From an uncultured virus (IMG/VR IMGVR_UViG_3300001605_000024) (Duplodnaviria > Heunggongvirae > Uroviricota > Caudoviricetes): 20,000 bases of DNA. The position numbers were made by a program, and so were the translations under genes. Shown piece by piece: positions 2,644-18,494 of this stretch. Location: IMG/VR virus record IMGVR_UViG_3300001605_000024, positions 57,268-77,267 of that record. One strand, 5' to 3'. Under the pieces are notes generated by a model, which did not search any database, was not told the origin of the DNA, and was given only the letters and a program-made list of their open reading frames with translations. The number at the start of each line of letters is the position of its first letter. Positions within the stretch are counted from its first letter, which is position 1.

Positions 2644-2680
2644 CCCCCATCAATTTATTAGATGGGGGATATTATTTTTA
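2644..2680 (+). terminator. GC-rich hairpin after nrdA, probable terminator or translational-control hairpin
   Basis: CCCCCATC-N9-GATGGGGG followed by an AT-rich/T-rich tract. Confidence 0.5.
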
Positions 2681-2682
2681 TT

Positions 2683-3306
2683 ATGAGTAATATTATAAAA
2701 ATTTATTATCTTCATAAAGGAAATAATATTCCTTTTTATGTAGGAGAAACTTCTCAATCTCTTAATGCAAGATTAAATAACCATAAAAGAAGATTAGGAA
2801 AAGAAATACAAATTGAGTTAATTGAAGAAGTAGAAAATGAAAATTGGAGATTTTGGGAAAAATATTGGATAAACCAATTCAAAGTTTGGGGATTTAATTT
2901 AATTAATAAGAATGAAGGGGGTGGAGGAGTTAATAAAGGTACTCCTAAACATACTTTTGAATCTAGAAAAAAAATTAGTAATTCTCGAATTGGGATTAAA
3001 TATAGTGAAGAATCTAAACAAAAAATAAGTAGAGCACTATTAGGTAAAAAACAATCTATAGAGACTTGCGAATTAAAACGAATTAAAAGATTAGGATTTA
3101 AACATTCAGAAATTAGTAAACATAATATTAAAAAAAATCTTTCCAAACCTATTTTACAATATTCTAAAAAAGGAGAATTGATCCAATCCTGGCCTAGTAC
3201 CAAACTTGCAAGTGAATCCCTTAGAATTTACTCATCTGATATATGTAAATGTCTAAAAAATAAAGGTAAATCTGCTGGGGGGTATATATGGAAATTTAAA
3301 GAATAA
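2683..3306 (+). CDS. Free-standing GIY-YIG homing endonuclease with NUMOD3-like repeats and a C-terminal NUMOD1/HTH-like domain
   Basis: IYYL...FYVGET motif, LINKNEGGGG, repeated H/Y-S/T-x-E-S-K/R units, SAGGYIWKF end; the track start at 2662 lies inside the hairpin, so 2683 is preferred. Confidence 0.85.
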   Translation: MSNIIKIYYLHKGNNIPFYVGETSQSLNARLNNHKRRLGKEIQIELIEEVENENWRFWEKYWINQFKVWGFNLINKNEGGGGVNKGTPKHTFESRKKISNSRIGIKYSEESKQKISRALLGKKQSIETCELKRIKRLGFKHSEISKHNIKKNLSKPILQYSKKGELIQSWPSTKLASESLRIYSSDICKCLKNKGKSAGGYIWKFKE

Positions 3307-7397: not shown

Positions 7398-8270
7398 ATG
7401 AAAAACGTAGTAGTATCACTTAGTGGGGGAATGGATTCTTCAACATTATTATTAAGAGCATTATCTGAATACGGTAATGTAGTTGCCGTGTCTTTTGATT
7501 ATGGTCAAAAGCATAAGGTGGAGCTTGAACGAGCCCAAGAATTAGTACAATATATAAATGTAACTAAATTTACACAAAAGCCAGTTCGTGATAGAGGAGA
7601 AGGATTTAAAAAAGACTATCCTGTAAAACATCAAGTAATTAAACTTGACGGATTAACTAATCTACTTCATTCCACATTAGTAGAGGGTGGAGCAGAAGTA
7701 CCTGAAGGCCATTATGAACAAGATAACATGAAGGAAACTGTAATCCCGAATCGCAACAAGATCTTCAGTTCAATTGTTCAAGCTATTGCTTTATCAACAG
7801 CCGTACAAACCAATTTAACTTGTGATATTGCTTTAGGCATTCATGCAGGTGACCATGCTATTTATCCAGACTGCCGACAAGAATTTAGAGATATTGATCA
7901 TCAAGCTTTTGTAGTTGGTAACTGGGAAGCAGAACGAGTTAATTTCTATACACCATATCTAGATACTGACAAGTTTGGTATTTTGAAGGATGGTGAGAGA
8001 TTGTGTGAAGAGTTAGGGTTGGATTTTAATGAAGTATATAGACGTACTAATACTTCTTATAAACCCATTAAACACTACTATAGACCAGAAACTAATGCTT
8101 TTAAATGGTATTCCGATTACAAATCAGCTTCTTCAGTAGAGCGTATCGAAGCATTTCTTAAACTAGGTAAACCGGATCCAGTAGCTTATGCTGATGAAAA
8201 AGGGCCGGTAAGTTGGGAAATAGCTAAAGCACATGTAGAATCAGTTTTAATAAATCATACTTTAAACTAA
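7398..8270 (+). CDS. queC: 7-cyano-7-deazaguanine (preQ0) synthase
   Basis: SGGMDS PP-loop, FDYGQKH, VIPNRN, HAGDHAIYPDCR. Confidence 0.93.
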   Translation: MKNVVVSLSGGMDSSTLLLRALSEYGNVVAVSFDYGQKHKVELERAQELVQYINVTKFTQKPVRDRGEGFKKDYPVKHQVIKLDGLTNLLHSTLVEGGAEVPEGHYEQDNMKETVIPNRNKIFSSIVQAIALSTAVQTNLTCDIALGIHAGDHAIYPDCRQEFRDIDHQAFVVGNWEAERVNFYTPYLDTDKFGILKDGERLCEELGLDFNEVYRRTNTSYKPIKHYYRPETNAFKWYSDYKSASSVERIEAFLKLGKPDPVAYADEKGPVSWEIAKAHVESVLINHTLN

Positions 8271-8271
8271 T

Positions 8272-8637
8272 ATGAACACTATAGGATTAATAACAACTGC
8301 TGCAGAGACAGGATTAACAATTCATGAATCATTCAATGATTATTTAATAAATAATTCTAACGGTACATATAGTACTACAATTTCACCCAATTTCACATTT
8401 TCAGCCTTATCCGATTATATGGAAAACAACTCATCACAACCACAACAAGTAAAAGTAGCAGTATTCGAAATTGAACGAGATGAAAACCAAAAAGTAATCT
8501 CTACACAATTTATTAGTGAGTTTTGGATTGAACATAAGTCTAAAGCTAATTTAACATTAACAGTAGCTAAGAAACTAGCTAAAGAAGTTGATCTAGACAA
8601 GATTGTAATTAAAGAACTCTCAAGAGTTTTTTTCTAA
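8272..8637 (+). CDS. Hypothetical protein (true start possibly 8419)
   Basis: ORF track; low-complexity N-terminal part and an internal ATG at 8419. Confidence 0.55.
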   Translation: MNTIGLITTAAETGLTIHESFNDYLINNSNGTYSTTISPNFTFSALSDYMENNSSQPQQVKVAVFEIERDENQKVISTQFISEFWIEHKSKANLTLTVAKKLAKEVDLDKIVIKELSRVFF

Positions 8638-8687
8638 AAACGCGTGGAGTAATCTCTCCCACATATGTATAACAAATAACAAGTAAA

Positions 8688-8810
8688 ATGCTTTCAACAT
8701 TCAATTTACATAAGAATAATAACAGTACGATTTGGTCGTTTAATCAAAGACCGGAAGCGTATGGTGATGTTATATGTGGAGATGTCCGAGCAAAGTATTT
8801 TAGTAAGTAA
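8688..8810 (+). CDS. Putative attenuator leader peptide (40 aa) containing all 20 amino acids
   Basis: MLSTFNLHKNNNSTIWSFNQRPEAYGDVICGDVRAKYFSK; A-rich start context; followed by a terminator with a competing complementary segment. Confidence 0.75.
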   Translation: MLSTFNLHKNNNSTIWSFNQRPEAYGDVICGDVRAKYFSK

Positions 8811-8832
8811 TTAAAAAACTAAACATAACTTG

Positions 8833-8866
8833 AAAGCCTCGGACAAAAAAAGTTCGAGGTTTTTTT
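8833..8866 (+). terminator. Intrinsic terminator (putative attenuator) upstream of the tRNA array
   Basis: AAAGCCTCGGAC-A7-GTTCGAGGTTTTTTT; 5' arm CTCGGACA (8838-8845) also pairs with TGTCCGAG (8783-8790). Confidence 0.85.
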
Positions 8867-8872
8867 AGTTCC

Positions 8873-8935
8873 GTTTGGCTTTAAGAGATATGGATGTTAT
8901 ATTTAGGAGTAATTAAGATATGAGATGCATATCTG
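8873..8935 (+). repeat. Promoter + 5' hairpin unit, copy 1
   Basis: GTTTGGC-N18-TATATTTAGGAGTAATTAAGA followed by hairpin AGATATG/CATATCT. Confidence 0.75.
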
Positions 8936-8964
8936 AAAAGAAAAAAAAAGAAATACTTACAAAT

Positions 8965-9032
8965 GTTTGGCTCCTAAAAATAAGGATGTTATATTTAGGA
9001 AGTAATTGAGACGTGGAATAAGTTCACATCTA
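8965..9032 (+). repeat. Promoter + 5' hairpin unit, copy 2
   Basis: GTTTGGC-N18-TATATTTAGGAAGTAATTGAGACGTGGAATAAGTTCACATCT, nearly identical to 12484-12550. Confidence 0.8.
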
Positions 9033-9041
9033 AAAAAATAA

Positions 9042-9117
9042 CGGGTGGTAGAGGAGTCAGGTTTATCTCGCTTCCCTTGGAAGGAAGAGCACGTGCGTTC
9101 GAATCGCACTCACCCGA
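9042..9117 (+). tRNA. tRNA-Pro(TGG)
   Basis: Cloverleaf; CTTCC-CTTGGAA-GGAAG; TTCGAAT T-loop. Confidence 0.92.
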
Positions 9118-9127
9118 CTTAACAAAT

Positions 9128-9198
9128 TGACCTATAGTGTAACGGTAACACACAACACTTTGACTGTTGTTTTTCTAGTTCGAATCTAGATAGGTCAT
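9128..9198 (+). tRNA. tRNA-Gln(TTG)
   Basis: TGACCTA/TAGGTCA acceptor; CAACA-CTTTGAC-TGTTG. Confidence 0.92.
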
Positions 9199-9209
9199 CC
9201 GAAAGATTT

Positions 9210-9226
9210 AGTTCTTTGACGTATTG
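9210..9226 (+). promoter_or_regulatory. boxA-like antitermination element
   Basis: AGTTCTTTGACGTATTG, similar to rrn boxA; second copy at 13039. Confidence 0.6.
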
Positions 9227-9262
9227 ATGCCAAAAAATTCTCCGGTATACTCGCCTTCGTAG

Positions 9263-9336
9263 GGGTTGGTAGCATAGTGGTTTAATGCAGTTGACTGTTA
9301 ATCAAAAGATCGTGAGTTCGAATCTCACCCAACCCG
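9263..9336 (+). tRNA. tRNA-Asn(GTT)
   Basis: GGGTTGG/CCAACCC acceptor; loop CTGTTAA. Confidence 0.9.
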
Positions 9337-9392
9337 CTTAATTTTTCTTGTTAAGAGAAAGAGCTTTGATATATTTATAATAAATATTAATT

Positions 9393-9839
9393 ATGAAGTA
9401 TATTAAAGAAAACAAAACTGAGATTATAGAATTATATAAAAGCTCTAATGGTAATTTAAATATTACGGCTAATAGATTTAATTTAGTTTCAAAATGGGCT
9501 ATAAGAAATTTCCTTCAAAAAGAAAATTTATATGGTAAAATTAAAGCAAAAGAAACACTTCAAGAAAAAAGTAGAAGAAAAAGTTTACATGTTATTAACT
9601 GGAAGAGAAATAGGAAAATTGAATTAGTCAAATATAAAGGAGGTAAATGTGAAAAGTGTGGGTATGATAAATGTATTGAAGCATTAGAATTCCATCATAA
9701 AGACCCATCCCAAAAAGATTTCAATATAAGTTCTCATTCCTATTCATCAAAAAGAATGAAAGATGAAGCCGATAAATGTTTGTTATTATGTTCTAATTGT
9801 CATAGAGAAGAACATGTAAGGTTAAAATTAGATAATTAG
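9393..9839 (+). CDS. HNH endonuclease
   Basis: CEKCGY...LEFHH...LLCSNCHREEH. Confidence 0.9.
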   Translation: MKYIKENKTEIIELYKSSNGNLNITANRFNLVSKWAIRNFLQKENLYGKIKAKETLQEKSRRKSLHVINWKRNRKIELVKYKGGKCEKCGYDKCIEALEFHHKDPSQKDFNISSHSYSSKRMKDEADKCLLLCSNCHREEHVRLKLDN

Positions 9840-9863
9840 TTCAATTGACCGGAGAGCATAATT

Positions 9864-9937
9864 GGGCCTATGGCGCAACTGGTTAGCGTAGCACGCTCAT
9901 AACGTGAAAGTTGGGAGTTCGAATCTCTCTAGGCCCA
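9864..9937 (+). tRNA. tRNA(CAT), probably Ile2 (lysidine type)
   Basis: Loop CTCATAA; body GGGCCTA...GCACG resembles tRNA-Ile; separate Met and fMet genes are present. Confidence 0.8.
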
Positions 9938-9944
9938 CAATTCT

Positions 9945-10116
9945 GAGACGACTGTGGTAACCAGCCCACGGTATATGAATCCTTAAAAGCCGTCTTGATT
10001 CGCGATATTAAAGCGGTGCGGGTAGAGTTGATATAAGTTTGGAGTAGCTTGCCAATTAACGAAAATTCAACCACTAACGAGAGTTAGTCATGATGTCGAT
10101 GCCGACAAAAATCGGA
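9945..10116 (+). ncRNA. Unassigned structured RNA
   Basis: GC-richer than the genes; several stems including ACTAAC-GAGA-GTTAGT (GNRA loop). Confidence 0.45.
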
Positions 10117-10124
10117 ATTAATTT

Positions 10125-10196
10125 AGTTCCTTAGGCTAACTGGAAGACCTTTCGGCTACGAACCGGAGAGTGTTGGTTCGAATCCAACAGGGACTA
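10125..10196 (+). tRNA. tRNA-Arg(ACG)
   Basis: TTCGG-CTACGAA-CCGGA; GTTGG-TTCGAAT-CCAAC; weak D-stem. Confidence 0.88.
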
Positions 10197-10254
10197 CGGT
10201 AACCGTTTGCAGCTGCACTACGTTCGGGACTAAAATTAAATCGGGCAGCAACAT

Positions 10255-10326
10255 GGCTCTATAGTTAAATGGAAATAACGAGACTCTTCTAAAGTCAAGT
10301 TCCTAGTTCGATTCTAGGTAGAGCTA
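10255..10326 (+). tRNA. tRNA-Arg(TCT)
   Basis: GGCTCTA/TAGAGCT acceptor; loop CTTCTAA. Confidence 0.9.
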
Positions 10327-10328
10327 CT

Positions 10329-10437
10329 TCATCTGTAGTTTAACATGGGGTAAAACACAATGACTGGTAAGTCGCTCTTGGAGATGATCACTCCCGAACT
10401 TACTAAGAGTAAGCTGGTTCAAGCCCAGCTGGATGAG
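10329..10437 (+). ncRNA. tRNA-like RNA with an expanded anticodon-arm region
   Basis: Acceptor TCATCTG/TGGATGA, D-arm and T-arm GCTGG-TTCAAGC-CCAGC flank an approximately 55-nt stem-loop. Confidence 0.7.
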
Positions 10438-10469
10438 CAATAAAATTATGTTACATTAAAAAGAAAATT

Positions 10470-10979
10470 ATGAATGCTTACAACCGTACATTAGTACTAG
10501 ACGTTTCATATTTGGCACGTGGTATTATTACTGCTGAAAGAGCTTTTGTAATTTCTTACAAAGGTAACGCAGAAATAATTCATGAACATGAAGAAACATT
10601 CGGATTAGTTAATCCAGACTTAGAAATTAGAAAACCTTCAATTATTAGAGTTAAGAAATATGTTAACGATAAGTTACATAGGGTACCATTAACACGAGAT
10701 AATGTGTATCGTAGAGATGGATATGAGTGTGTTTATTGTGGTGAAGGTAGAAAAAAATTACTTACTTTAGACCATGTTATACCTAAATCTAAAGGTGGAG
10801 CAGATACGTGGGAAAACTTAGTCACTGCTTGCAGTAAATGCAATAATGAAAAAGATAATTTAACATTAGAGGAATACGGAAAAGCAATTCCACAACCATA
10901 TAGACCACATTATCTAATGATGATTAAGTCAATGTTTGATATACCTGAGGAATGGAAGAAGTTTTTACTATTTCAATAA
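10470..10979 (+). CDS. HNH endonuclease (McrA-like)
   Basis: RDGYECVYCG...LTLDHVIPKSKGG...WENLVTACSKCNNEK. Confidence 0.92.
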   Translation: MNAYNRTLVLDVSYLARGIITAERAFVISYKGNAEIIHEHEETFGLVNPDLEIRKPSIIRVKKYVNDKLHRVPLTRDNVYRRDGYECVYCGEGRKKLLTLDHVIPKSKGGADTWENLVTACSKCNNEKDNLTLEEYGKAIPQPYRPHYLMMIKSMFDIPEEWKKFLLFQ

Positions 10980-10982
10980 AAT

Positions 10983-11015
10983 GTTTGGCTCTTAAAAATA
11001 AAATACTTATATTTA
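10983..11015 (+). promoter_or_regulatory. Bacteroidota-type -33/-7 promoter
   Basis: GTTTGGC-N18-TATATTTA. Confidence 0.8.
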
Positions 11016-11030
11016 GGTATAAGTTAAGAT

Positions 11031-11142
11031 AGTCAGGTGGCGGAATTGGTAGACGCTGTCCGTGGAGGATTGATTGGTTCTGTTCAATTCAGACGTTGGA
11101 AATGGTGTTCCACAAATACAGGTTCAAGTCCTGTCCTGACTA
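11031..11142 (+). ncRNA. tRNA-like RNA with a Leu-like D-arm and no canonical anticodon arm
   Basis: AGTCAGG/CCTGACT acceptor, GCGGAATTGGTAGACGC D-arm, ACAGG-TTCAAGT-CCTGT T-arm, approximately 60-nt branched insert. Confidence 0.72.
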
Positions 11143-11198
11143 CCTACGTTTTCTGAGAACCACGCTAGACAGATGACAGTTCGGAAAGACGACAATAT

Positions 11199-11272
11199 AG
11201 TACCTTAGCTCAATTGGTTAGAGCATCCGTCTGATACGCGGAAGGTTATAGATTCGAGTTCTATAGGTACTA
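11199..11272 (+). tRNA. tRNA-Ile(GAT)
   Basis: TCCGT-CTGATAC-GCGGA; full cloverleaf. Confidence 0.92.
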
Positions 11273-11279
11273 CATAAAT

Positions 11280-11353
11280 GCTCCTTTAGCTTAGCTGGTA
11301 AAAGCGTTTGGCTTACATCCAAAAGGTCGGTGGTTCGAATCCATCAGGGAGTA
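11280..11353 (+). tRNA. tRNA-Val(TAC)
   Basis: TTTGG-CTTACAT-CCAAA; full cloverleaf. Confidence 0.92.
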
Positions 11354-11412
11354 CGAGTGGGACTGTTACTAATTCATAGAACTATAGAGTGTTTGCATAG
11401 AATTAGAATTAT

Positions 11413-11494
11413 GCCTGTATCGCATAGCGGCAATTGCTGAGCACTGTAAATGCTCTCTCTTTGGAGTTCGGTGGTTCGAGTCCATCTGCAGGCA
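11413..11494 (+). tRNA. tRNA-Tyr(GTA)
   Basis: GAGCA-CTGTAAA-TGCTC; long variable arm. Confidence 0.92.
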
Positions 11495-11528
11495 CAACTT
11501 AGGTTCGAGAAACTAATATTTATAATAA

Positions 11529-11984
11529 ATGTTAGATATGAAAACTCAAGATAAAGTACTTGAATTAAGAACTAAAGGAAAAACAATACCGGAAATATGT
11601 TCTATATTAGGTATAAAAAAAGGATCAGTAGGTTATCACTTAAAAAACTTAAATTTAAGTAAAAATAATCAAAGTAGTAAACCTTCAAAAAGTAAAGATT
11701 ATTGGCCTATATTAAAAGGTGAAGAACAAAGTATTGGAACATATCATAATAATATTAGAGGTGTTTTAAAACGATTTATTATAAAAAATAATATAATACC
11801 TTACATGTGTTCTGAATGTGGGTGTGATGATAACTGGAGAGGTAAAAAAATGTCATTAATTTTAGACCACATAAATGGTATAAATAATGACAATAGATTA
11901 GAAAATCTAAGATTCTTATGTCCCAATTGTGATTCTATTCAAGATACATATAAAGGTAGAAATAAAAAAACAATGGAGCAGTAG
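11529..11984 (+). CDS. HNH endonuclease with N-terminal HTH
   Basis: CSECG...LDHINGINNDNRLENLRFLCPNCDS; HTH-like N-terminus; start may be 11538. Confidence 0.9.
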   Translation: MLDMKTQDKVLELRTKGKTIPEICSILGIKKGSVGYHLKNLNLSKNNQSSKPSKSKDYWPILKGEEQSIGTYHNNIRGVLKRFIIKNNIIPYMCSECGCDDNWRGKKMSLILDHINGINNDNRLENLRFLCPNCDSIQDTYKGRNKKTMEQ

Positions 11985-12047
11985 CAATGGAGGTCCACGC
12001 ACTGAATTGAAGCTTCAGACATGTAAGTTCGATACTTACCTGCTCCA
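11975..12047 (+). tRNA. tRNA-Phe(GAA), atypical D-arm and anticodon loop
   Basis: GGAGCAG/CTGCTCC acceptor; CTGAA-TTGAAGC-TTCAG; overlaps the HNH stop. Confidence 0.82.
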
Positions 12048-12055
12048 CATTATAT

Positions 12056-12128
12056 TCTCTCGAAGCTCATGTGGACGGGCTACTGGCTTTTAACCAGTAG
12101 GTAGTTGGTTCGAGGCCAACCGGGAGAA
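12056..12128 (+). tRNA. tRNA-Lys(TTT)
   Basis: ACTGG-CTTTTAA-CCAGT; A at position 8. Confidence 0.9.
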
Positions 12129-12136
12129 CAGTAAAT

Positions 12137-12223
12137 AGAGGTGATCTGGCTGGATCAAGACCCGATCTTGAAAATCGGTAGAACGTTAATAGCGTTTTGT
12201 GAGTTCGAGTCTCACCGCCTCTT
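12137..12223 (+). tRNA. tRNA-Ser(TGA)
   Basis: CCGAT-CTTGAAA-ATCGG; long variable arm. Confidence 0.88.
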
Positions 12224-12229
12224 CAATAT

Positions 12230-12303
12230 GGCAAGATGGTAGAGTTGGTTTCTTACACTGGTCTCATAAGCCGGGGACATAGGTTCAAATCCTATTCTTG
12301 CTA
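12230..12303 (+). tRNA. tRNA-Met(CAT), probably elongator
   Basis: CTGGT-CTCATAA-GCCGG; GGC acceptor start. Confidence 0.85.
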
Positions 12304-12312
12304 CTTAAATAT

Positions 12313-12387
12313 GGTGTTTGAAGCATTAAGGTGATGCGCAGGTCTGTGGAACCTGAGAAGACGGGTCGGTACCGTTCTTACACCCCA
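12313..12387 (+). tRNA. tRNA-His(GTG) with G-1 and encoded CCA
   Basis: CAGGT-CTGTGGA-ACCTG; C73-CCA; atypical T-loop GTCGGTA. Confidence 0.85.
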
Positions 12388-12388
12388 T

Positions 12389-12474
12389 AGAGAGTAAATC
12401 ATGATGGTGATTGACCTCGCCTGCTAAGCGATGGGTTCTTTAAAAAGAATACGGTTCGATTCCGTTGCTCTCTG
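12389..12474 (+). tRNA. tRNA-Ser(GCT)
   Basis: Loop CTGCTAA; long variable arm; G73. Confidence 0.87.
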
Positions 12475-12483
12475 CTGAAAAAA

Positions 12484-12550
12484 GTTTGGCTTTTAAAAAT
12501 AAAGATGTTATATTTAGGAGTAATTAAGACGTGAAATAAGTTCACATCTT
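12484..12550 (+). repeat. Promoter + 5' hairpin unit, copy 3
   Basis: GTTTGGC-N18-TATATTTAGGAGTAATTAAGACGTGAAATAAGTTCACATCTT. Confidence 0.8.
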
Positions 12551-12569
12551 AAAAGAAAAATGACAAAAT

Positions 12570-12602
12570 GTTTGGCTTTAGTAAAAATATTTCATATCTT
12601 TA
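12570..12602 (+). promoter_or_regulatory. Bacteroidota-type promoter, tandem to 12484
   Basis: GTTTGGC-N18-TATCTTTA. Confidence 0.75.
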
Positions 12603-12606
12603 TAAC

Positions 12607-12819
12607 ATGATAAAAATAGATAAGTCACTCGTAGGAAAAATAGTTAAAGTTCATTTACCTCAAACTTATTACAAAGGATCAGGAGTTTCAACTGAGGCTA
12701 GTTATATTATAGGTAAATGCACATTTGCAGGATTTAACTGGCGTATAGGTGCTAGACAAGTAACAATAAACCGAACACCTATATTTCCCGTAATAGAATC
12801 TCAAGTTGAGATTTTATAA
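12607..12819 (+). CDS. Small hypothetical protein (70 aa), possibly near-leaderless
   Basis: The track start at 12568 overlaps the promoter; ATG at 12607 lies just after the -7 box. Confidence 0.6.
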   Translation: MIKIDKSLVGKIVKVHLPQTYYKGSGVSTEASYIIGKCTFAGFNWRIGARQVTINRTPIFPVIESQVEIL

Positions 12820-12827
12820 AAATATAT

Positions 12828-12901
12828 TGCGAGTTATAGTAATGGTAACTTACTGGGCTCATAACCCAGAGCTGGAGGTTCGAATCCTTCACTCGCTACC
12901 A
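12828..12901 (+). tRNA. Initiator tRNA-fMet(CAT) with CCA
   Basis: Unpaired 1:72; three G-C pairs (GGG/CCC) in the anticodon stem. Confidence 0.92.
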
Positions 12902-12957
12902 ATTGTATTAAACAAATAATGGTCTCCAGTGCCTACCAACAGTGGAAAATTTAACAT

Positions 12958-13030
12958 GGGCTTGTAGCTCAACTGGCTGAGCGCTTCATTTGCAATGAAG
13001 AGGATGTGGGTTCAAATCCCACCTTGTCCA
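12958..13030 (+). tRNA. tRNA-Ala(TGC)
   Basis: G3:U70; CTTCA-TTTGCAA-TGAAG. Confidence 0.92.
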
Positions 13031-13038
13031 CTAAAATT

Positions 13039-13055
13039 AGATCTTTGACATATTG
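13039..13055 (+). promoter_or_regulatory. boxA-like antitermination element
   Basis: AGATCTTTGACATATTG; 15/17 identical to 9210-9226. Confidence 0.6.
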
Positions 13056-13064
13056 TAATTAAAT

Positions 13065-13217
13065 TGTAGAGTGTCGAAATTGGCAGACGAGCCCTCCTGT
13101 CCCGAGGGTGGTGATAAAGAAATAAAGTATAGTTAACGGGTGGCATTAGATTATTTTCTAAAATTATGTTAACTATACCTAATCTCATCGTAGACGGTTC
13201 GAATCCTCTCTCTACAG
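13065..13217 (+). ncRNA. tRNA-like RNA (GTC loop) with an approximately 80-nt variable-arm insertion
   Basis: TGTAGAG/CTCTACA acceptor; CCCTC-CTGTCCC-GAGGG; 11-bp GTATAGTTAAC/GTTAACTATAC stem; GGTTCGAATCC. Confidence 0.72.
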
Positions 13218-13218
13218 C

Positions 13219-13342
13219 TATAGAAACGTAGTGAAGCTGTAATGATGTTTAATTGGATAAAAGCATAAAAAAGGGTTTAGAGTAGTGTCGCGTGTCCGTA
13301 TCTCATCATCAGTAACCCCGAAAGACCCGAAGCGTTTCTATA
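13219..13342 (+). ncRNA. Unassigned rod-like RNA
   Basis: 11-bp closing stem TATAGAAACGT/GCGTTTCTATA with nested stems. Confidence 0.55.
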
Positions 13343-13346
13343 TTAT

Positions 13347-13427
13347 GCTCCAGTGTTGGAATTGGTAGACATCAATGACTTAGGATCATTGGCCTATGGC
13401 GTGGGGGTTCGAGTCCCTCCTGGAGTA
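13347..13427 (+). tRNA. tRNA-Leu(TAG)
   Basis: AATGA-CTTAGGA-TCATT; variable arm. Confidence 0.92.
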
Positions 13428-13430
13428 CAA

Positions 13431-13560
13431 AAGGTTGATTGGGGAATGGTGATATGAATTATCTGGTAGTGAAGAAAAATTAGTATCACCGGAGTTTAAA
13501 CTACTATAGTAAAGCCAATTGTAAAAGTAGATGTCCACTGAACCATCTTCTACTTTCCTA
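13431..13560 (+). ncRNA. Unassigned structured RNA with a possible pseudoknot
   Basis: GATTGG/CCAATT, GGTGATAT/GTATCACC and AAAGTAGA/TCTACTTT stems. Confidence 0.55.
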
Positions 13561-13565
13561 AAATT

Positions 13566-13637
13566 GCTCCTAAAGCATTGCTGGCGATGCGTATGTCTTG
13601 TAAACATAAAAACTTGGTTCGATTCCGAGTAGGAGCT
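13566..13637 (+). tRNA. tRNA-Thr(TGT)
   Basis: TATGT-CTTGTAA-ACATA; A8/U14. Confidence 0.9.
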
Positions 13638-13649
13638 CAAAAAATATAA

Positions 13650-13721
13650 GCGGGATTCGTATAGTGATAATTACACTAGCCTTCCAAGCCTGTGACGAGA
13701 GTTTGATTCTCTCATCCCGCT
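13650..13721 (+). tRNA. tRNA-Gly(TCC), divergent
   Basis: GCGGGAT/ATCCCGC acceptor, U73, loop CTTCCAA; mismatched anticodon stem; T-loop TTTGATT. Confidence 0.78.
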
Positions 13722-13724
13722 CTA

Positions 13725-13880
13725 GCAGTCACTTGACTCAGATAGTACAGTGAAATTGGTTGGGGTATCTGAAACCCATGAACCAAGGCGCAAGCTAAGA
13801 GTAAACTTGCAACAACTAAGTGCCAATACATTAGAAACGTAGCTCTAGGGTGATCTAGAGTCGTAGCCAATCTTAGTTAA
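13725..13880 (+). ncRNA. Unassigned structured RNA or RNAs
   Basis: Interleaved complementary segments plus GCAAG/CTTGC, AACTAAG/CTTAGTT and CTCTAG/CTAGAG stems. Confidence 0.45.
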
Positions 13881-13889
13881 TTTTAACAT

Positions 13890-13962
13890 GTTCCTGAGGA
13901 CAAATTGGTTGAGTCGTCACCCTTTCAAGGTGAAGGAGCGGGTTCGAATCCCGCCAGGAATA
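13890..13962 (+). tRNA. tRNA-Glu(TTC)
   Basis: TCACC-CTTTCAA-GGTGA; full cloverleaf. Confidence 0.92.
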
Positions 13963-14028
13963 CACAGCTGTGGTGGACAGCAATGACGGTCAATCATTAG
14001 ACGCTCAAAACCGATCCACCAACTTTAC

Positions 14029-14099
14029 ATGTCCATAGTGAAATGGTATCATAACGCTCTCCAAAAGCAGAGTTCCGAGTTCGAATCTTGGTGGACGTG
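14029..14099 (+). tRNA. tRNA-Trp(CCA)
   Basis: Loop CTCCAAA; G73; short anticodon stem. Confidence 0.85.
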
Positions 14100-14107
14100 C
14101 ATAATAT

Positions 14108-14187
14108 ACAAGTGTAGTTTAATATGGAAAAAATAACCACTTCCGGAGTGGTAGATAGGTTTAGTTCAAATCTCCTCACTTGTGCCA
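14108..14187 (+). tRNA. tRNA-Arg(CCG) with a 3-nt T-stem bulge and encoded CCA
   Basis: ACAAGTG/CACTTGT acceptor; ACCAC-TTCCGGA-GTGGT. Confidence 0.75.
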
Positions 14188-14188
14188 A

Positions 14189-14282
14189 AAACTAAGGTAC
14201 CTATTTTGAGAAGGTAGGTCGTCTGAGTTGACCGCAGACATAAAATTTTATTCAGGAAGAAATAAAAAATCTCCCTTAGTTT
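14189..14282 (+). ncRNA. Four-way-junction RNA, not a tRNA
   Basis: 9-bp closing stem AAACTAAGG/CCTTAGTTT enclosing three hairpins. Confidence 0.5.
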
Positions 14283-14311
14283 GGCTTTCTTAAATATAGA
14301 TATTATATTTA
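14279..14311 (+). promoter_or_regulatory. Bacteroidota-type promoter
   Basis: GTTTGGC-N18-TATATTTA. Confidence 0.8.
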
Positions 14312-14326
14312 GATATAAATTAAAAT

Positions 14327-14409
14327 GTCAGAGTGTCGTAACAGGTAGCCGAGATAGACTTAAAATCTATTGAGCATAGCTCGTGCGGGTTCGAGTCCCG
14401 CCTCTGATA
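14327..14409 (+). tRNA. tRNA-Leu(TAA)
   Basis: ATAGA-CTTAAAA-TCTAT; variable arm. Confidence 0.92.
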
Positions 14410-14438
14410 CAAAAAAATAGCATCAATACATTAAAAAT

Positions 14439-14514
14439 GGTTCGTTAGGGGAGTTAGGCCGTCCCCGTTTGCCTGTCACGCAAAAGATCACGGGTTCAAA
14501 TCCCGTACGAACCG
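14439..14514 (+). tRNA. tRNA-Asp(GTC)
   Basis: TTTGC-CTGTCAC-GCAAA; G73. Confidence 0.93.
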
Positions 14515-14516
14515 CA

Positions 14517-14695
14517 ATTACTAGTTGTAGATCTTTATAGACATTCTATTGGACGTGAGTTCGAATCTCACCATCTCCACATCTAAAATTATTAACTGGG
14601 GATGACCGGTATTGACAGTAGAGAGAGTAGATAAAAGGAGATTAGTAGTTAAAGCAAACGACAACTTTGCATTAGCGGCCTAAAAAGCCATAGCG
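14517..14695 (+). ncRNA. ssrA: Circularly permuted (two-piece) tmRNA; acceptor piece about 14517-14579, coding piece from 14598; tag ANDNFALAA
   Basis: GGAC-GTGAG-TTCGAAT-CTCAC-CATCTCCA precedes GGGGATG...TTGAC; G3:U70; tag frame 14654-14683; 3' boundary approximate. Confidence 0.88.
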
Positions 14696-14837
14696 TTGAT
14701 GTTGTGCTCGATACTGTCGCGGTAAGTTAATTATACTAGGTATAAACAACTTATTTCCAGTACAATGAGAGTCCAGCGTGATCTGGCCAAATTCGGGTAA
14801 AATTATTCCCCCCTAAATCTTTTATGATTTAGGTCAG

Positions 14838-14873
14838 GAGGTGGGATACTATAAAAAGTTCTCACCTCTTTTT
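14838..14873 (+). terminator. Intrinsic terminator-like hairpin before tRNA-Cys
   Basis: GAGGTGGGA...TCTCACCTC followed by TTTTT. Confidence 0.6.
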
Positions 14874-14879
14874 ACTAAT

Positions 14880-14953
14880 GGTACTATACCCAAGTGGCTT
14901 AAGGGGCTTGTCTGCAAAACAAGTATTCATTGGTTCAAATCCAATTAGTACCT
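14880..14953 (+). tRNA. tRNA-Cys(GCA)
   Basis: CTTGT-CTGCAAA-ACAAG; U73. Confidence 0.93.
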
Positions 14954-14962
14954 CTAAACATT

Positions 14963-14998
14963 AAAGCTTGGCTATTCAAGCTTTCTTTATTATATTTA
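14963..14998 (+). promoter_or_regulatory. Overlapping terminator hairpin and promoter
   Basis: AAAGCTTG/CAAGCTTT hairpin containing GCTTGGC; TATATTTA at the conserved spacing. Confidence 0.7.
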
Positions 14999-15002
14999 CA
15001 TT

Positions 15003-15587
15003 ATGAAAAAAATAATATTTCTTGACCATGATGGTGTAATATGTTTATCCCGCAATTGGGGTACTCGCCATACTAAACAAAGGAAATGGGGAAAACGAAA
15101 AATGTCAATGGATCTCCAATCTATTCCTATAGAATATCGATTTGATAACTTTGATAAAAAATCAATTGAGTTATTAAATGATATACTAGAGCAAACTAAT
15201 GCTGATATAGTTGTTAGCTCTGACTGGAGACTTTTTACTTCTCTAAATGAAATGAGTACATATTACACATCTCAAGGAATCATTAAAACGCCGGTTGGAT
15301 TCACAAGAAAATTAGGAGATTTTGATGTACCTAAAGAATTTGAATGGAACCGACAATGGGAACTAGAACAAACCAGATGCTTTGAAATTCACCAATATCT
15401 AAAAGACCATCCAGATATTACACATTGGGTTGCGATTGATGATTTGGATATGAGAAAAATTGGTAAACACTATTCTGTTGATTTTGAGCATGAATGGGGA
15501 TTAGATAATTTTGTCCATACTCCTTTAAGTCGAGAAGGCATTAAGCAAACCGGGGTTAAAGAAAAAATATTAAGTTTCTTAACTTAA
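15003..15587 (+). CDS. HAD-family phosphatase, RNA-repair-associated (HAD_SAK_2-like)
   Basis: IFLDHDGV, VVSSDWR and WVAIDD motifs. Confidence 0.8.
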   Translation: MKKIIFLDHDGVICLSRNWGTRHTKQRKWGKRKMSMDLQSIPIEYRFDNFDKKSIELLNDILEQTNADIVVSSDWRLFTSLNEMSTYYTSQGIIKTPVGFTRKLGDFDVPKEFEWNRQWELEQTRCFEIHQYLKDHPDITHWVAIDDLDMRKIGKHYSVDFEHEWGLDNFVHTPLSREGIKQTGVKEKILSFLT

Positions 15588-16998: not shown

Positions 16999-18030
16999 AT
17001 GAATTTACTGCAAACATTAGAGCAATATCACAATGAAGGATGGTTAATCAAACAGAAACATCCGGATTTTCCAATCACCATTTGGAATTATTCCAAAACT
17101 ACCCAATATGTTAGGAAATGGGATAAAATTACATTAATGTGTAGAGGATTAGTTACTATGGATGATACTGGAGAAATTTTAGCTCGTCCTTTTAAAAAAT
17201 TCTTTAATATAGAAGAAAATCAACACACACCTACCCCAGATTTTGATGTATTTGAAAAAATGGATGGTTCCTTAATTATTTCCTTCTATTTATGGGGTAG
17301 TTGGATATTTGCATCTCGTGGCTCATTTACTTCAGATCAAGCCAAAGCCGCTTCTAAGTTATTTTATTCTCAATGTGATTGTATAGGAATGAATATGGAT
17401 GTTACTTACTTGTTTGAATTCACTGCTCCATGGAATAGAATAGTAGTGGATTATGGTGATAAAGAAAATTTAACTTTACTAGGTGCTATTAGAAATGAAG
17501 ATGGGGTGGAAGCACCATGGTGGCATTTAGAATTAGTCTCTAAAGAAAATAAAATTGACTTAGTTAAAAAGTATGATGGTATTAATGACTACACTACTTT
17601 AAAAAGTAAAATCCAAGATAATGCTGAAGGATTTGTTATTAAATTTTCTAATGGTGATAAAGTAAAAATTAAAGGAGAAGAATATTTAAGACTACATAAA
17701 ATCATGACTAATATCTCTACTACTGATATTTGGGAAACTTTATCAGATGGTAGAAATATGGAAGAGATATTGAAAGATGTTCCTGATGAATTTTATAATA
17801 AAATCAAAGAGGTAGTTGGTGATATTGCCGTTAGGTTTGATAATATTAGAACAGATTATATCCAATATTTTACCGATATTGTATTCAAAATAGGTAGAGA
17901 AGATAGGAGAAGATTTGCTGAAGAAGCAAGAAGATATAATCATTCTTCAATTTTATTCGCTATGTTAGATGGAAAGGATATCAATCCTATAATTTGGAAA
18001 ATTGTAAAACCTGAATGGAAAAAAATTTAA
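16999..18030 (+). CDS. T4 Rnl1-like RNA ligase
   Basis: CRGLV, RPFKKFFN, EKMDGS (motif I), LFEF, EGFV, KIKGEEY. Confidence 0.92.
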   Translation: MNLLQTLEQYHNEGWLIKQKHPDFPITIWNYSKTTQYVRKWDKITLMCRGLVTMDDTGEILARPFKKFFNIEENQHTPTPDFDVFEKMDGSLIISFYLWGSWIFASRGSFTSDQAKAASKLFYSQCDCIGMNMDVTYLFEFTAPWNRIVVDYGDKENLTLLGAIRNEDGVEAPWWHLELVSKENKIDLVKKYDGINDYTTLKSKIQDNAEGFVIKFSNGDKVKIKGEEYLRLHKIMTNISTTDIWETLSDGRNMEEILKDVPDEFYNKIKEVVGDIAVRFDNIRTDYIQYFTDIVFKIGREDRRRFAEEARRYNHSSILFAMLDGKDINPIIWKIVKPEWKKI

Positions 18031-18086: not shown

Positions 18087-18494
18087 ATGAAAACATTAAT
18101 ACTCCTAAGAGGATTACCAGGATCAGGAAAATCTACATTTGCTCGTTATATGTTTTCAAATAACGTGTTTGAGACAGATCAGTATTTCTATGATCATGAT
18201 GGTAACTACAATTTTGACTCAACCAAACTTAAAGAAGCACATCAAGATTGTCAAAAACGTGTAGAAGCTCTAATGGAAATATCAGACTCAACTCAATATG
18301 GGAAAGAGATTGTGGTAGCTAATACATTTACTCAAGAATGGGAAATGCAACCTTATTTTGATCTAGCCTCTAAATATAATTATGGAGTATTTAGTTTAAT
18401 AGTAGAAAATAGACATAATGGTATAAATATCCATAATGTTCCTGAAGATAAACTTAAACAAATGGCAAACCGATTTCAATTTAAATTAAAATAA
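18087..18494 (+). CDS. P-loop kinase, polynucleotide-kinase-like (AAA_33)
   Basis: LRGLPGSGKST Walker A, VVANTF, NIHNVP; next to the RNA ligase. Confidence 0.85.
   Translation: MKTLILLRGLPGSGKSTFARYMFSNNVFETDQYFYDHDGNYNFDSTKLKEAHQDCQKRVEALMEISDSTQYGKEIVVANTFTQEWEMQPYFDLASKYNYGVFSLIVENRHNGINIHNVPEDKLKQMANRFQFKLK

Follow-up and report, generated by a model that had tools for sequence, protein, structure and literature searches.

Why should a 40-codon open reading frame (ORF) that uses all 20 amino acids lie upstream of a phage array of tRNA genes? The question is raised by a stretch of 20,000 nucleotides (nt) from an uncultured virus (IMG/VR record IMGVR_UViG_3300001605_000024, positions 57,268 to 77,267). 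This whole stretch, called the window here, is the final 20 kb of a 77,267-bp phage contig (G+C 31%). Its + strand carries, in order, the gene for QueC, a gene for a 121-amino-acid (aa) protein, the 40-codon ORF at 8688-8810, a terminator, two promoter-like sites and 26 tRNA genes. We give about an even chance to the reading that ORF 8688-8810 is the leader ORF of a ribosome-dependent attenuator ahead of the tRNA array, one that samples nearly every codon class. The attenuator design itself, consisting of leader ORF, antiterminator and terminator, is well supported by comparison with related sequences.

The proposed leader ORF and its two RNA pairings

Four features make up the proposed element.

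8688-8810, + strand: 40-codon putative leader ORF that covers the 20 amino acids and every one of the 23 decoding classes; product MLSTFNLHKNNNSTIWSFNQRPEAYGDVICGDVRAKYFSK
8725-8737 / 8749-8762, + strand: inner hairpin over codons 13-25, found by folding; its stem contains the ACG, TCG, CCG and GCG codons
8783-8790, + strand: antiterminator segment in codons 32-35, TGTCCGAG, the exact complement of CTCGGACA (8838-8845); duplex -12.3 kcal/mol
8836..8866, + strand: intrinsic terminator with 5' arm 8837-8844, A7 loop 8845-8851, 3' arm 8852-8859 and T7 tract 8860-8866; -15.1 kcal/mol

The composition of the ORF sets it apart. An earlier note on this DNA had counted all 20 amino acids by codon 30 and 15 different residues in a row. 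Translation gave the same figures, 20 of 20 residues within the first 30 codons and at most 15 distinct residues in succession. No other of the 387 contig ORFs of at least 30 aa has 20 distinct residues in its first 30, the runners-up (three ORFs) having 18, and none of the 20,452 30-residue windows across 88 long ORFs holds all 20. The chance of finding all 20 by codon 30, which the note had proposed to compute from the usage of the genome, is 1.2e-4 with the genome's amino-acid usage and 7.9e-5 with random nucleotides. Among 5,582 dinucleotide shuffles of the ORF that stay open it is 0.0079. Comparison with the 26 tRNAs of the array bore out the statement that the codons of the ORF match all of them except elongator Met and Arg-CCG, the missing codons being an internal Met codon and CGG. 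All that the note had said about the letters themselves proved correct.

The start context of the ORF lies at the 22nd percentile of gene starts and beats 87.5% of other ATGs. Its 40-aa product matched no family in Pfam, and the best match in PHROGs had an E value of 0.24. The ORF was rejected as a piece of a larger protein, since no longer protein shares words with it. A known cis-regulatory RNA family or a T-box was rejected as well: an Rfam scan of 8000-15500 (E up to 1) gave only matches of the tRNA or transfer-messenger RNA (tmRNA) type, none of them in 8640-8870.

Folding recovered both the terminator and the hairpin inside the ORF, which the earlier note had described. The terminator was unlisted by a standard terminator scan and listed by a custom one. 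The complementarity between 8783-8790 and 8838-8845, in the terminator 5' arm, is exact, as had been claimed. An equal or longer complement arose by chance in 11 of 2000 dinucleotide shuffles of the upstream sequence over a 100-nt span and in 5 of 2000 over a 150-nt span. At the genome's five other terminator-like sites, such a complement is just 4-6 nt long.

The leader region folds far better than its shuffles, with z values of -4.19 in the window and -5.59 in a related locus, L002. A 33-nt stretch in the region of the inner hairpin is identical in L002. The ACG, TCG, CCG and GCG codons to which the earlier note had drawn attention are indeed present. Their significance for tRNA sampling did not stand, because all four sit in G:C pairs of the inner hairpin and need no such reason.

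Strain variants were read from the contigs of four public runs. Variant 8860 T>C, present in contigs of all four, adds a G-C pair to the terminator. Variant 8728 C>T turns a C-G pair into U.G with the pair kept, and 8747 A>G lies in a loop. The variant at 8717 improves a pair and the one at 8700 breaks one. A contig of the RNA-library run X16 spans 8783-8918 across the terminator with adapter-like flanks; an assembled contig is uninformative on RNA ends, strand or level, and nothing was drawn from it. The terminator sequence alone (8833-8867) recurs in X13 and X9 contigs with flanks unlike those of the window, which suggests that the hairpin is used again elsewhere or by other phages.

Relatives of the leader

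Protein searches of 5.8 and 1.8 billion sequences returned very few relatives of the leader peptide. These are a near-identical record (P0002, with F5L), the L002 form (P0003, P0038) and a third lineage found as protein only (P0005, P0037, P0039), which keeps the first 25 residues and has another C-terminal half. To judge by the residues of this third lineage, IPS may keep CCGAG in another frame, and the joint changes G6E and P31S from P0005 to P0039 would be compensatory.

At L002 the QueC protein is 80% identical, and the ORF, terminator, two promoters and tRNA-Pro follow in the same order as in the window. The L002 ORF differs by indels of 3, 3 and 6 nt, which keep the frame, and it too has 20 of 20 residues by codon 30. 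The pair 8785-8843 is U-A in the window and C-G in L002, the sole two-sided change among all predicted pairs. Antiterminator and arm read UGUCCGAG:CUCGGACA in the window and GCCCGAG:CUCGGGC in L002, where the antiterminator duplex has an energy of -15.2 and the terminator of -14.6 kcal/mol. The run NNN at codons 10-12 of the window is GIN in L002, and no single-codon run is conserved. Substitutions between the two ORFs fall 7, 8 and 9 at the three codon positions, with an omega of 0.70 and a synonymous divergence (pS) of 0.26, against 0.13 and 0.53 for QueC and 0.24 and 0.56 for the 121-aa gene. Together with the open frame, this omega and the low pS indicate a sequence constrained as nucleotides with the frame retained. 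The strain variants of the four public runs agree with this.

Other searches for DNA of the window's type gave little. A scan with the 121-aa gene found none. A degenerate core pattern found only the L002 contig in viral_contigs. No relative was confirmed in metagenome_contigs, where one chance match (L083) lacks tRNAs, and no element of this type was found in genome_contigs or GenBank phages. Phage immuto, the nearest named phage, was rejected as a carrier; it has a lipoprotein gene at that place and no such leader.

A diverged family was reached through the tRNA arrays. Short ORFs upstream of the first tRNA in 81 loci were surveyed and ranked by residue diversity, which means that composition had a part in the first pick. 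The survey led to L029, L026 and L048, and a scan of viral_contigs from these gave 30 IMG/VR loci, which represent 24 distinct sequences. In each of the 30, an array led by tRNA-Ser(tga) is preceded by an ORF of 44-51 codons. The order of elements is ORF, antiterminator near the ORF end, AT-rich spacer, terminator, promoter and tRNA array, which is also the order in the window and L002. The earlier note had staked its proposal on conservation of the architecture, and had advised looking upstream of arrays in related phages for short ORFs of high diversity with covarying antiterminator and terminator; such elements were found, and the layout recurs in L002 and 30 further contigs.

A terminator lies 33-36 nt past the stop in 23 of the 24 distinct family sequences (25 of 26 distinct loci when the window and L002 are counted), and two pairs in the family terminator stem covary. 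The sole terminator-less locus of the 26, L104 (1342-1440, on a contig shared with L026), has kept the leader ORF and the 5' arm, and its 3' arm is replaced.

The antiterminator and the arm fall into matching classes, CCGGG:CCCGG, CCGAG:CUCGG, GAUUUGGG:CCCAAAUC and GAUCUGGG:CCCGGAUC, and the ends of the ORFs change with the arm: ACC GGG ATA TGA with CCCGG, ACC GAG GTA TGA with CUCGG, GAT TTG GGA TGA with CCCAAAUC and GAT CTG GGA TGA with CCCGGAUC. The antiterminator pairing is perfect in 20 of the 23 aligned family sequences. L088 shows a G.U intermediate, L105 and L108 have a GGUACC palindrome instead, and the pairing of L103 is partial. For the 5-bp register, none of 500 shuffles matched the observed percent paired, the two-sided changes or the covariation score. 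Slid registers pair less (42-54% of cells at one column), the +1 slide equalling the covariation score. An 8-bp register was rejected as a family-wide structure on the 23 rows; only its six users hold it. A tree built from the 23 elements has weak resolution and a mosaic appearance, and gives no reliable count of independent events. With the antiterminator about 45 nt from the arm and the elements mosaic, the changes are counted as roughly four or five independent compensations rather than twenty.

The frame is open in all 24 distinct family ORFs, the other two frames having at least one and at least three stops. Only 3.7-4.9% of shuffles stay open, and family indels are multiples of three. 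Also conserved are the ATG, the A-rich stretch that precedes it and the stop's position with respect to the terminator. Variable sites are spread 27/27/32 over the codon positions, and the ratio of nonsynonymous to synonymous change (pN/pS) is 0.72. Two peptide blocks, GFTYNNEPK and WSDSLCG, are invariant. A helix conserved in the family, TTCGTTAT/ATAACGAA, is formed by one of the blocks in which every codon position is conserved.

A covariance model of the 3' part of the family, R1, scored L002 at 28.7 bits (E 0.0064) and window positions 8804-8866 at 27.1 bits (E 0.013), mainly on spacer and terminator, and ranked them first and second of 27 matches in 158 kb. By eye, two short identical nucleotide blocks are common to the window and the family, in the same order. 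We treat the window element and the family as one design, which may be homologous.

At L115-L118, ARAGORN with a relaxed threshold listed an odd first tRNA ahead of tRNA-Ser(tga): tta ('Stop') in G002 (L116), Pro(agg) in G001 and G004, and Arg(ccg) in G003. A TAA-reading suppressor tRNA in G002 would be notable if real.

The proposed switch and its competitors

In the attenuators of amino-acid operons, a ribosome at the ORF end covers a segment that is able to pair with the terminator 5' arm. In the mechanism proposed here, RNA polymerase coming from the QueC operon would transcribe the ORF, then 8783-8790, then the terminator. A ribosome keeping pace, at codons 30-40 or the stop, would cover 8783-8790, the hairpin 8837-8859 would form, and transcription would end at the T tract. 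With the ribosome delayed in codons 1-29, or absent, 8783-8790 would pair with 8838-8845 before the 3' arm is made. The terminator would be blocked and transcription would continue into the tRNA genes, adding to the output of their own promoters. Of the 23 classes, 21 occur within codons 1-29, mostly once or twice each, and a ribosome would therefore fall behind whenever almost any of them is decoded slowly. A lack of an amino acid, or a tRNA that is lost or cleaved, could be the cause of such slowing. With nearly every class sampled, the element would report on the whole decoding system rather than on one amino acid. What computation shows is the ORF, the two RNA pairings, their conserved and covarying state and the uncommon coverage of codons; translation of the ORF, read-through on stalling and the physiological trigger are inferred.

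Equilibrium folding is blind to the order of folding; therefore RNA cut before the 3' arm was folded instead, with 28 nt masked around each A-site codon. With the ribosome stalled early, the antiterminator formed with a probability (P) of about 1; the last stall position at which this held was codon 28-29 for the window and L002, and about codon 40 of 46 for L085 and L094. The antiterminator was lost only with a ribosome over the ORF end, at codons 30-39 in the window and L002 and at the last 5-6 codons and the stop in L085, L094 and L111. In L094 the antiterminator was retained even in the minimum-energy fold of the full-length RNA. No conserved protector (1:2) pairing was found among these leaders, 14 outer pairs of the window's long hairpin being broken in L002. 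Thus folding predicts read-through even without translation.

The coverage of codons was scored over 23 decoding classes, namely 19 amino acids (Met excluded) with Leu, Ser, Arg and Ile each split in two. All 23 are present in the window, L002 and L105, 22 in 21 sequences (mostly without CGN) and 21 in two. The null set, 373 distinct ORFs of 40-51 codons from the same phages, has a median of 17-18 and a maximum of 22, reached by two ORFs, and none has 23. Sampling of every amino acid and of the split codon boxes, as claimed for the leader, thus holds across the family, at 21-23 of 23 classes. P is 1.05e-4 for 23 of 23 in 39 codons and 8e-3 for at least 22 in 45 codons. The 28 codons of the window that fall in the predicted sensing zone contain 21 classes (P 1.3e-4); in the family, 22 classes are present there in 20 of the 24 members. 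His-8 is lost in three sequence modules, each of which carries His at another column, and Asp, Glu and CTN-Leu are supplied from varying columns and never lost. None of 5000 column permutations reached the observed coverage, a figure inflated by relatedness. Sensing of the codon inventory is plausible and statistically favoured, and unproven. All 20 amino acids occur in three of 372 null ORFs. Two related 40-43-aa ORFs (MFE..HALGLCGD..) at L012 (1995-2126) and L032 (565-687) have all 20; they were rejected as further leaders, being operon genes without a terminator behind, and were counted as null matches.

The transcripts that reach the tRNA genes would not all come through the leader. Two promoter-like sites follow the terminator.

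8873..8905, + strand: P2a, TTTGGCT-N17-TATATTTAGG (TTGGCT-N17-TATATT at 8875-8903), conserved in L002
8965..8997, + strand: P2b, a tandem copy of P2a (TTGGCT-N17-TATATT at 8967-8995), from motif scan and comparison with L002

In one contig of run X9, position 8891 is joined to 8984, which leaves the strain concerned with a single P2 copy. The motif occurs in six copies before or inside the array, at 8875, 8967, 10985, 12486, 14281 and 14968 (+). A general form, TTG-N17-22-TAnnTTT[AG], which resembles the Bacteroidota promoter consensus, ends about 20 nt before the ATG in 15 of the 25 distinct loci; in the window it is absent from the 70 nt upstream of the ATG, and L002 also has none before the ORF.

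A number of observations weigh against the reading of the element as an attenuator that senses nearly all codons. First, the control it could exert is limited. The promoter motif starts 14-27 nt past the terminator in 19 of the 25 distinct loci, with four further copies in the window's array. Two promoters past the terminator had been pointed out in the earlier note, and they are there as promoter-like sites; its claim that the leader gates the tRNA array was too strong. With promoters behind the terminator and inside the array, read-through only adds, and the switch would modulate tRNA transcription and cannot gate it. Second, the full window RNA at equilibrium always forms the terminator, and in the cut RNA the antiterminator has a P of about 1 without any ribosome (window, L002, L085, L094 and L111). 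Third, with each class represented by one codon, the response would be expected to be weaker than that of classical attenuators, which have codon runs.

Fourth, the coverage is neither universal nor matched to the arrays. The third protein lineage has 18 (P0005, P0039) and 19 (P0037) residue types. Cys is absent from four of the 24 distinct family members, CGN-Arg from 21 of 24, and most have no internal Met; some relatives also lack Val. The leader set does not track the array: the prediction that a Cys-less leader goes with an array without tRNA-Cys failed in all three cases examined, those phages encoding tRNA-Cys, and two arrays without Trp and Tyr tRNAs in the fetched stretch have leaders that carry W and Y. 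Against shuffles of each ORF's own composition the excess of class coverage is modest, with P of 0.0014 for the window, 0.0029 for L002, 0.024 for L085 and 0.057 for L091. Most classes are contributed by blocks in which all three codon positions are conserved, and the sequences are related and mosaic, which leaves few independent events. Finally, hhalign puts the homology of window and family at a probability of 6% over 7 columns, and the distant relatives L003 and L020 have no leader, their tRNAs beginning 11 nt past the upstream gene.

Several of these points suit an explanation that survives better than the others, although we consider it rather unlikely. It keeps the ribosome-dependent attenuator and takes amino-acid completeness as incidental: the element would report the overall pace of translation or insulate the upstream operon, and the codon diversity would be a by-product of a GC-balanced, RNA-structured sequence. 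The structural evidence is identical for both readings. Composition-matched open shuffles give all 20 amino acids in 0.8-3.2% and the observed class coverage in 0.1-5.7%, and the blocks that supply most classes are conserved at every codon position, one of them forming the conserved helix; the window's four NCG codons lie in a hairpin stem. The relatives without Cys or Val and the independence of leader set and array set agree with this explanation too. The repetition of the pattern does not: two leader types with little common sequence both cover 22-23 of 23 classes, a level of 23 being found in no null ORF. In addition, His, Asp, Glu and CTN-Leu come from different columns without ever being lost, no column permutation matches, and the coverage lies almost wholly within the predicted sensing zone.

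It is less probable still, and in our view improbable, that the ORF is an ordinary small phage gene of 40-51 aa, which has a terminator of its own, and in most relatives a promoter too, and lies by chance before the array. The complementarity at its 3' end would then affect mRNA stability or translation. The promoter-like motif about 20 nt before the ATG, the terminator behind the ORF, the acceptable start context, the tRNA genes' own promoters and the invariant blocks GFTYNNEPK and WSDSLCG would all fit such a gene. Its mode of change would not, with an omega of 0.70-0.72 spread equally across codon positions while the neighbours have 0.13-0.24, and neither Pfam nor PHROGs has a match. Moreover, the C-terminal residues (TGI, TEV, DLG) covary with the terminator arm, which is predicted by RNA pairing and not by protein function, and the three protein-only relatives differ in their C-terminal half.

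An untranslated structured RNA, such as a 3' untranslated region or insulator hairpins closing the QueC operon, its open frame and composition being due to chance, would account for nucleotide conservation without a coding signature, for folding far better than shuffles, for the lack of a promoter motif ahead of the ORF in both the window and L002 and, given the very many windows examined, for one all-20 ORF somewhere, but it is very improbable, because the frame is open in 24 family members, the window, L002 and six protein records with the other frames always stopped, about 4% of shuffles stay open, the composition recurs in a diverged family, and the ATG, its A-rich context and the stop-to-terminator position are conserved.

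The tRNA array, its neighbours and known attenuators

The following features surround the proposed pan-codon attenuator.

7398-8270, + strand: QueC gene (Pfam QueC, 5.7e-38), the upstream gene whose transcripts would enter the leader
8272-8637, + strand: 121-aa gene, the upstream neighbour, whose transcripts would also enter the leader
8644..8662, + strand: small hairpin directly 3' of the 121-aa gene stop, by folding
9042..14954, + strand: array of 26 tRNA genes for all 20 amino acids (ARAGORN, Rfam), broken up by HNH endonuclease genes and four further copies of the promoter motif
15003-15587, + strand: gene with a HAD_SAK_2 RNA-repair domain (Pfam PF18143, 1.7e-21)
16999-18030, + strand: T4-type RNA ligase 1 gene (Pfam PF09511, 6.5e-20)
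18087-18494, + strand: AAA_33 kinase-like gene (Pfam PF13671, 4.1e-12)

The order of QueC and the 121-aa gene is shared by L002 and partly by phage immuto. The hairpin at 8644-8662 is also kept in L002, with a different loop, and strain contigs have several substitutions and one-base indels there. ARAGORN called 24 tRNAs in the array; a relaxed threshold added Ser(tga) at 12137-12224 and His(gtg) at 12314-12387, giving 26. Between tRNA-Asp and tRNA-Cys, Rfam matched a permuted tmRNA (RF04321) at 14531-14683 (+), with 62.3 bits against a gathering score of 47; ARAGORN called no tmRNA at this place. The HNH endonuclease genes that interrupt the array are at 10470-10979 and 11529-11984 (+), and a gene for a NUMOD3-type endonuclease lies at 2662-3306 (+) behind a ribonucleotide reductase gene. 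All of these look like homing endonucleases.

The HAD_SAK_2, RNA ligase 1 and AAA_33 genes, directly 3' of the array, together look like a tRNA-repair set. A tRNA cut by an anticodon nuclease is repaired by T4 RNA ligase 1 and polynucleotide kinase. A tentative idea, to which we give somewhat less than an even chance, is that phages with full tRNA sets use the leader as a translated "test track" of 40-50 codons, with almost every decoding class sampled once and a terminator/antiterminator switch attached. When almost any tRNA runs short, stays uncharged or is cut, as host anticodon nucleases might do, the ribosome would be delayed and transcription of the replacement tRNAs would rise. The leader and the RNA ligase and kinase-type repair genes would then be one module, and selection would act on having at least one codon per class, not on the peptide.

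Leader-peptide attenuation is textbook knowledge for amino-acid operons, whose leaders are rich in one or a few codons. The present element resembles trpL, hisL, pheL and the multivalent thr and ilvGMEDA leaders in its short ORF, which is followed by a terminator, and in a segment further upstream that can pair with the 5' arm. It differs from them in having no runs of regulatory codons, nearly each class occurring once or twice. Unlike in trp, no conserved protector hairpin was found, and absence of translation is also predicted to give read-through. Unlike in the amino-acid operon leaders, the genes downstream are tRNA genes, the carriers are phages of Bacteroidota-type hosts, and there is an extra promoter past the terminator. 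Like a T-box, the element would link tRNA status to terminator read-through via an antiterminator, but a T-box binds uncharged tRNA directly and needs no ORF.

Among the published systems, pheL is treated as a leader-peptide attenuator in the portion of the text available (PMC3082878). The mycobacterial whiB7 (wblC) leader is described, in the accessible part of the paper, as an upstream ORF (uORF) where stalling leads to antitermination; knock-down of amino-acid biosynthesis genes, tRNAs or synthetases activates it (PMC10274678). It is thus a published broad-spectrum stall sensor, with uORF composition setting the specificity. As far as that text goes, the whiB7 uORF is enriched in alanine and controls a bacterial transcription factor, whereas the leader described here has near-even classes and lies in a phage ahead of tRNA genes. 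At vmlR, msrD and similar genes, stalling in a short leader ORF also switches between terminator and antiterminator (PMC9226507; 10.1101/2021.11.29.470318). In the sections of these two sources that were available, the ribosomes are stalled by drugs at peptide motifs and the genes confer resistance; neither such a motif nor such a gene is present here.

Phage tRNAs have been proposed, according to the available parts of two papers, to replace host tRNAs cut by defence nucleases (PMC10264068, PMC11555353). The full array beside RNA ligase and kinase-type genes is like such anti-defence sets. What is available of these papers treats the tRNAs themselves, not a translation-sensing control ahead of them. 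A full-text literature search, limited to one collection, found no description of leader-peptide control of tRNA genes or of a leader with all amino acids.

Here the same type of switch appears ahead of tRNA genes, in phages, with a leader spread across nearly all codon classes. If the reading as a pan-codon attenuator is true, the element would be a sensor of the whole decoding system. It would give a direct, testable link between the translation state of the host, including its tRNA-cleaving defences, and expression of the phage tRNA sets, the role of which is a matter of long debate. Selection would then be acting on a codon inventory rather than on a protein sequence, and the element would provide a compact natural part for reporting translation stress.

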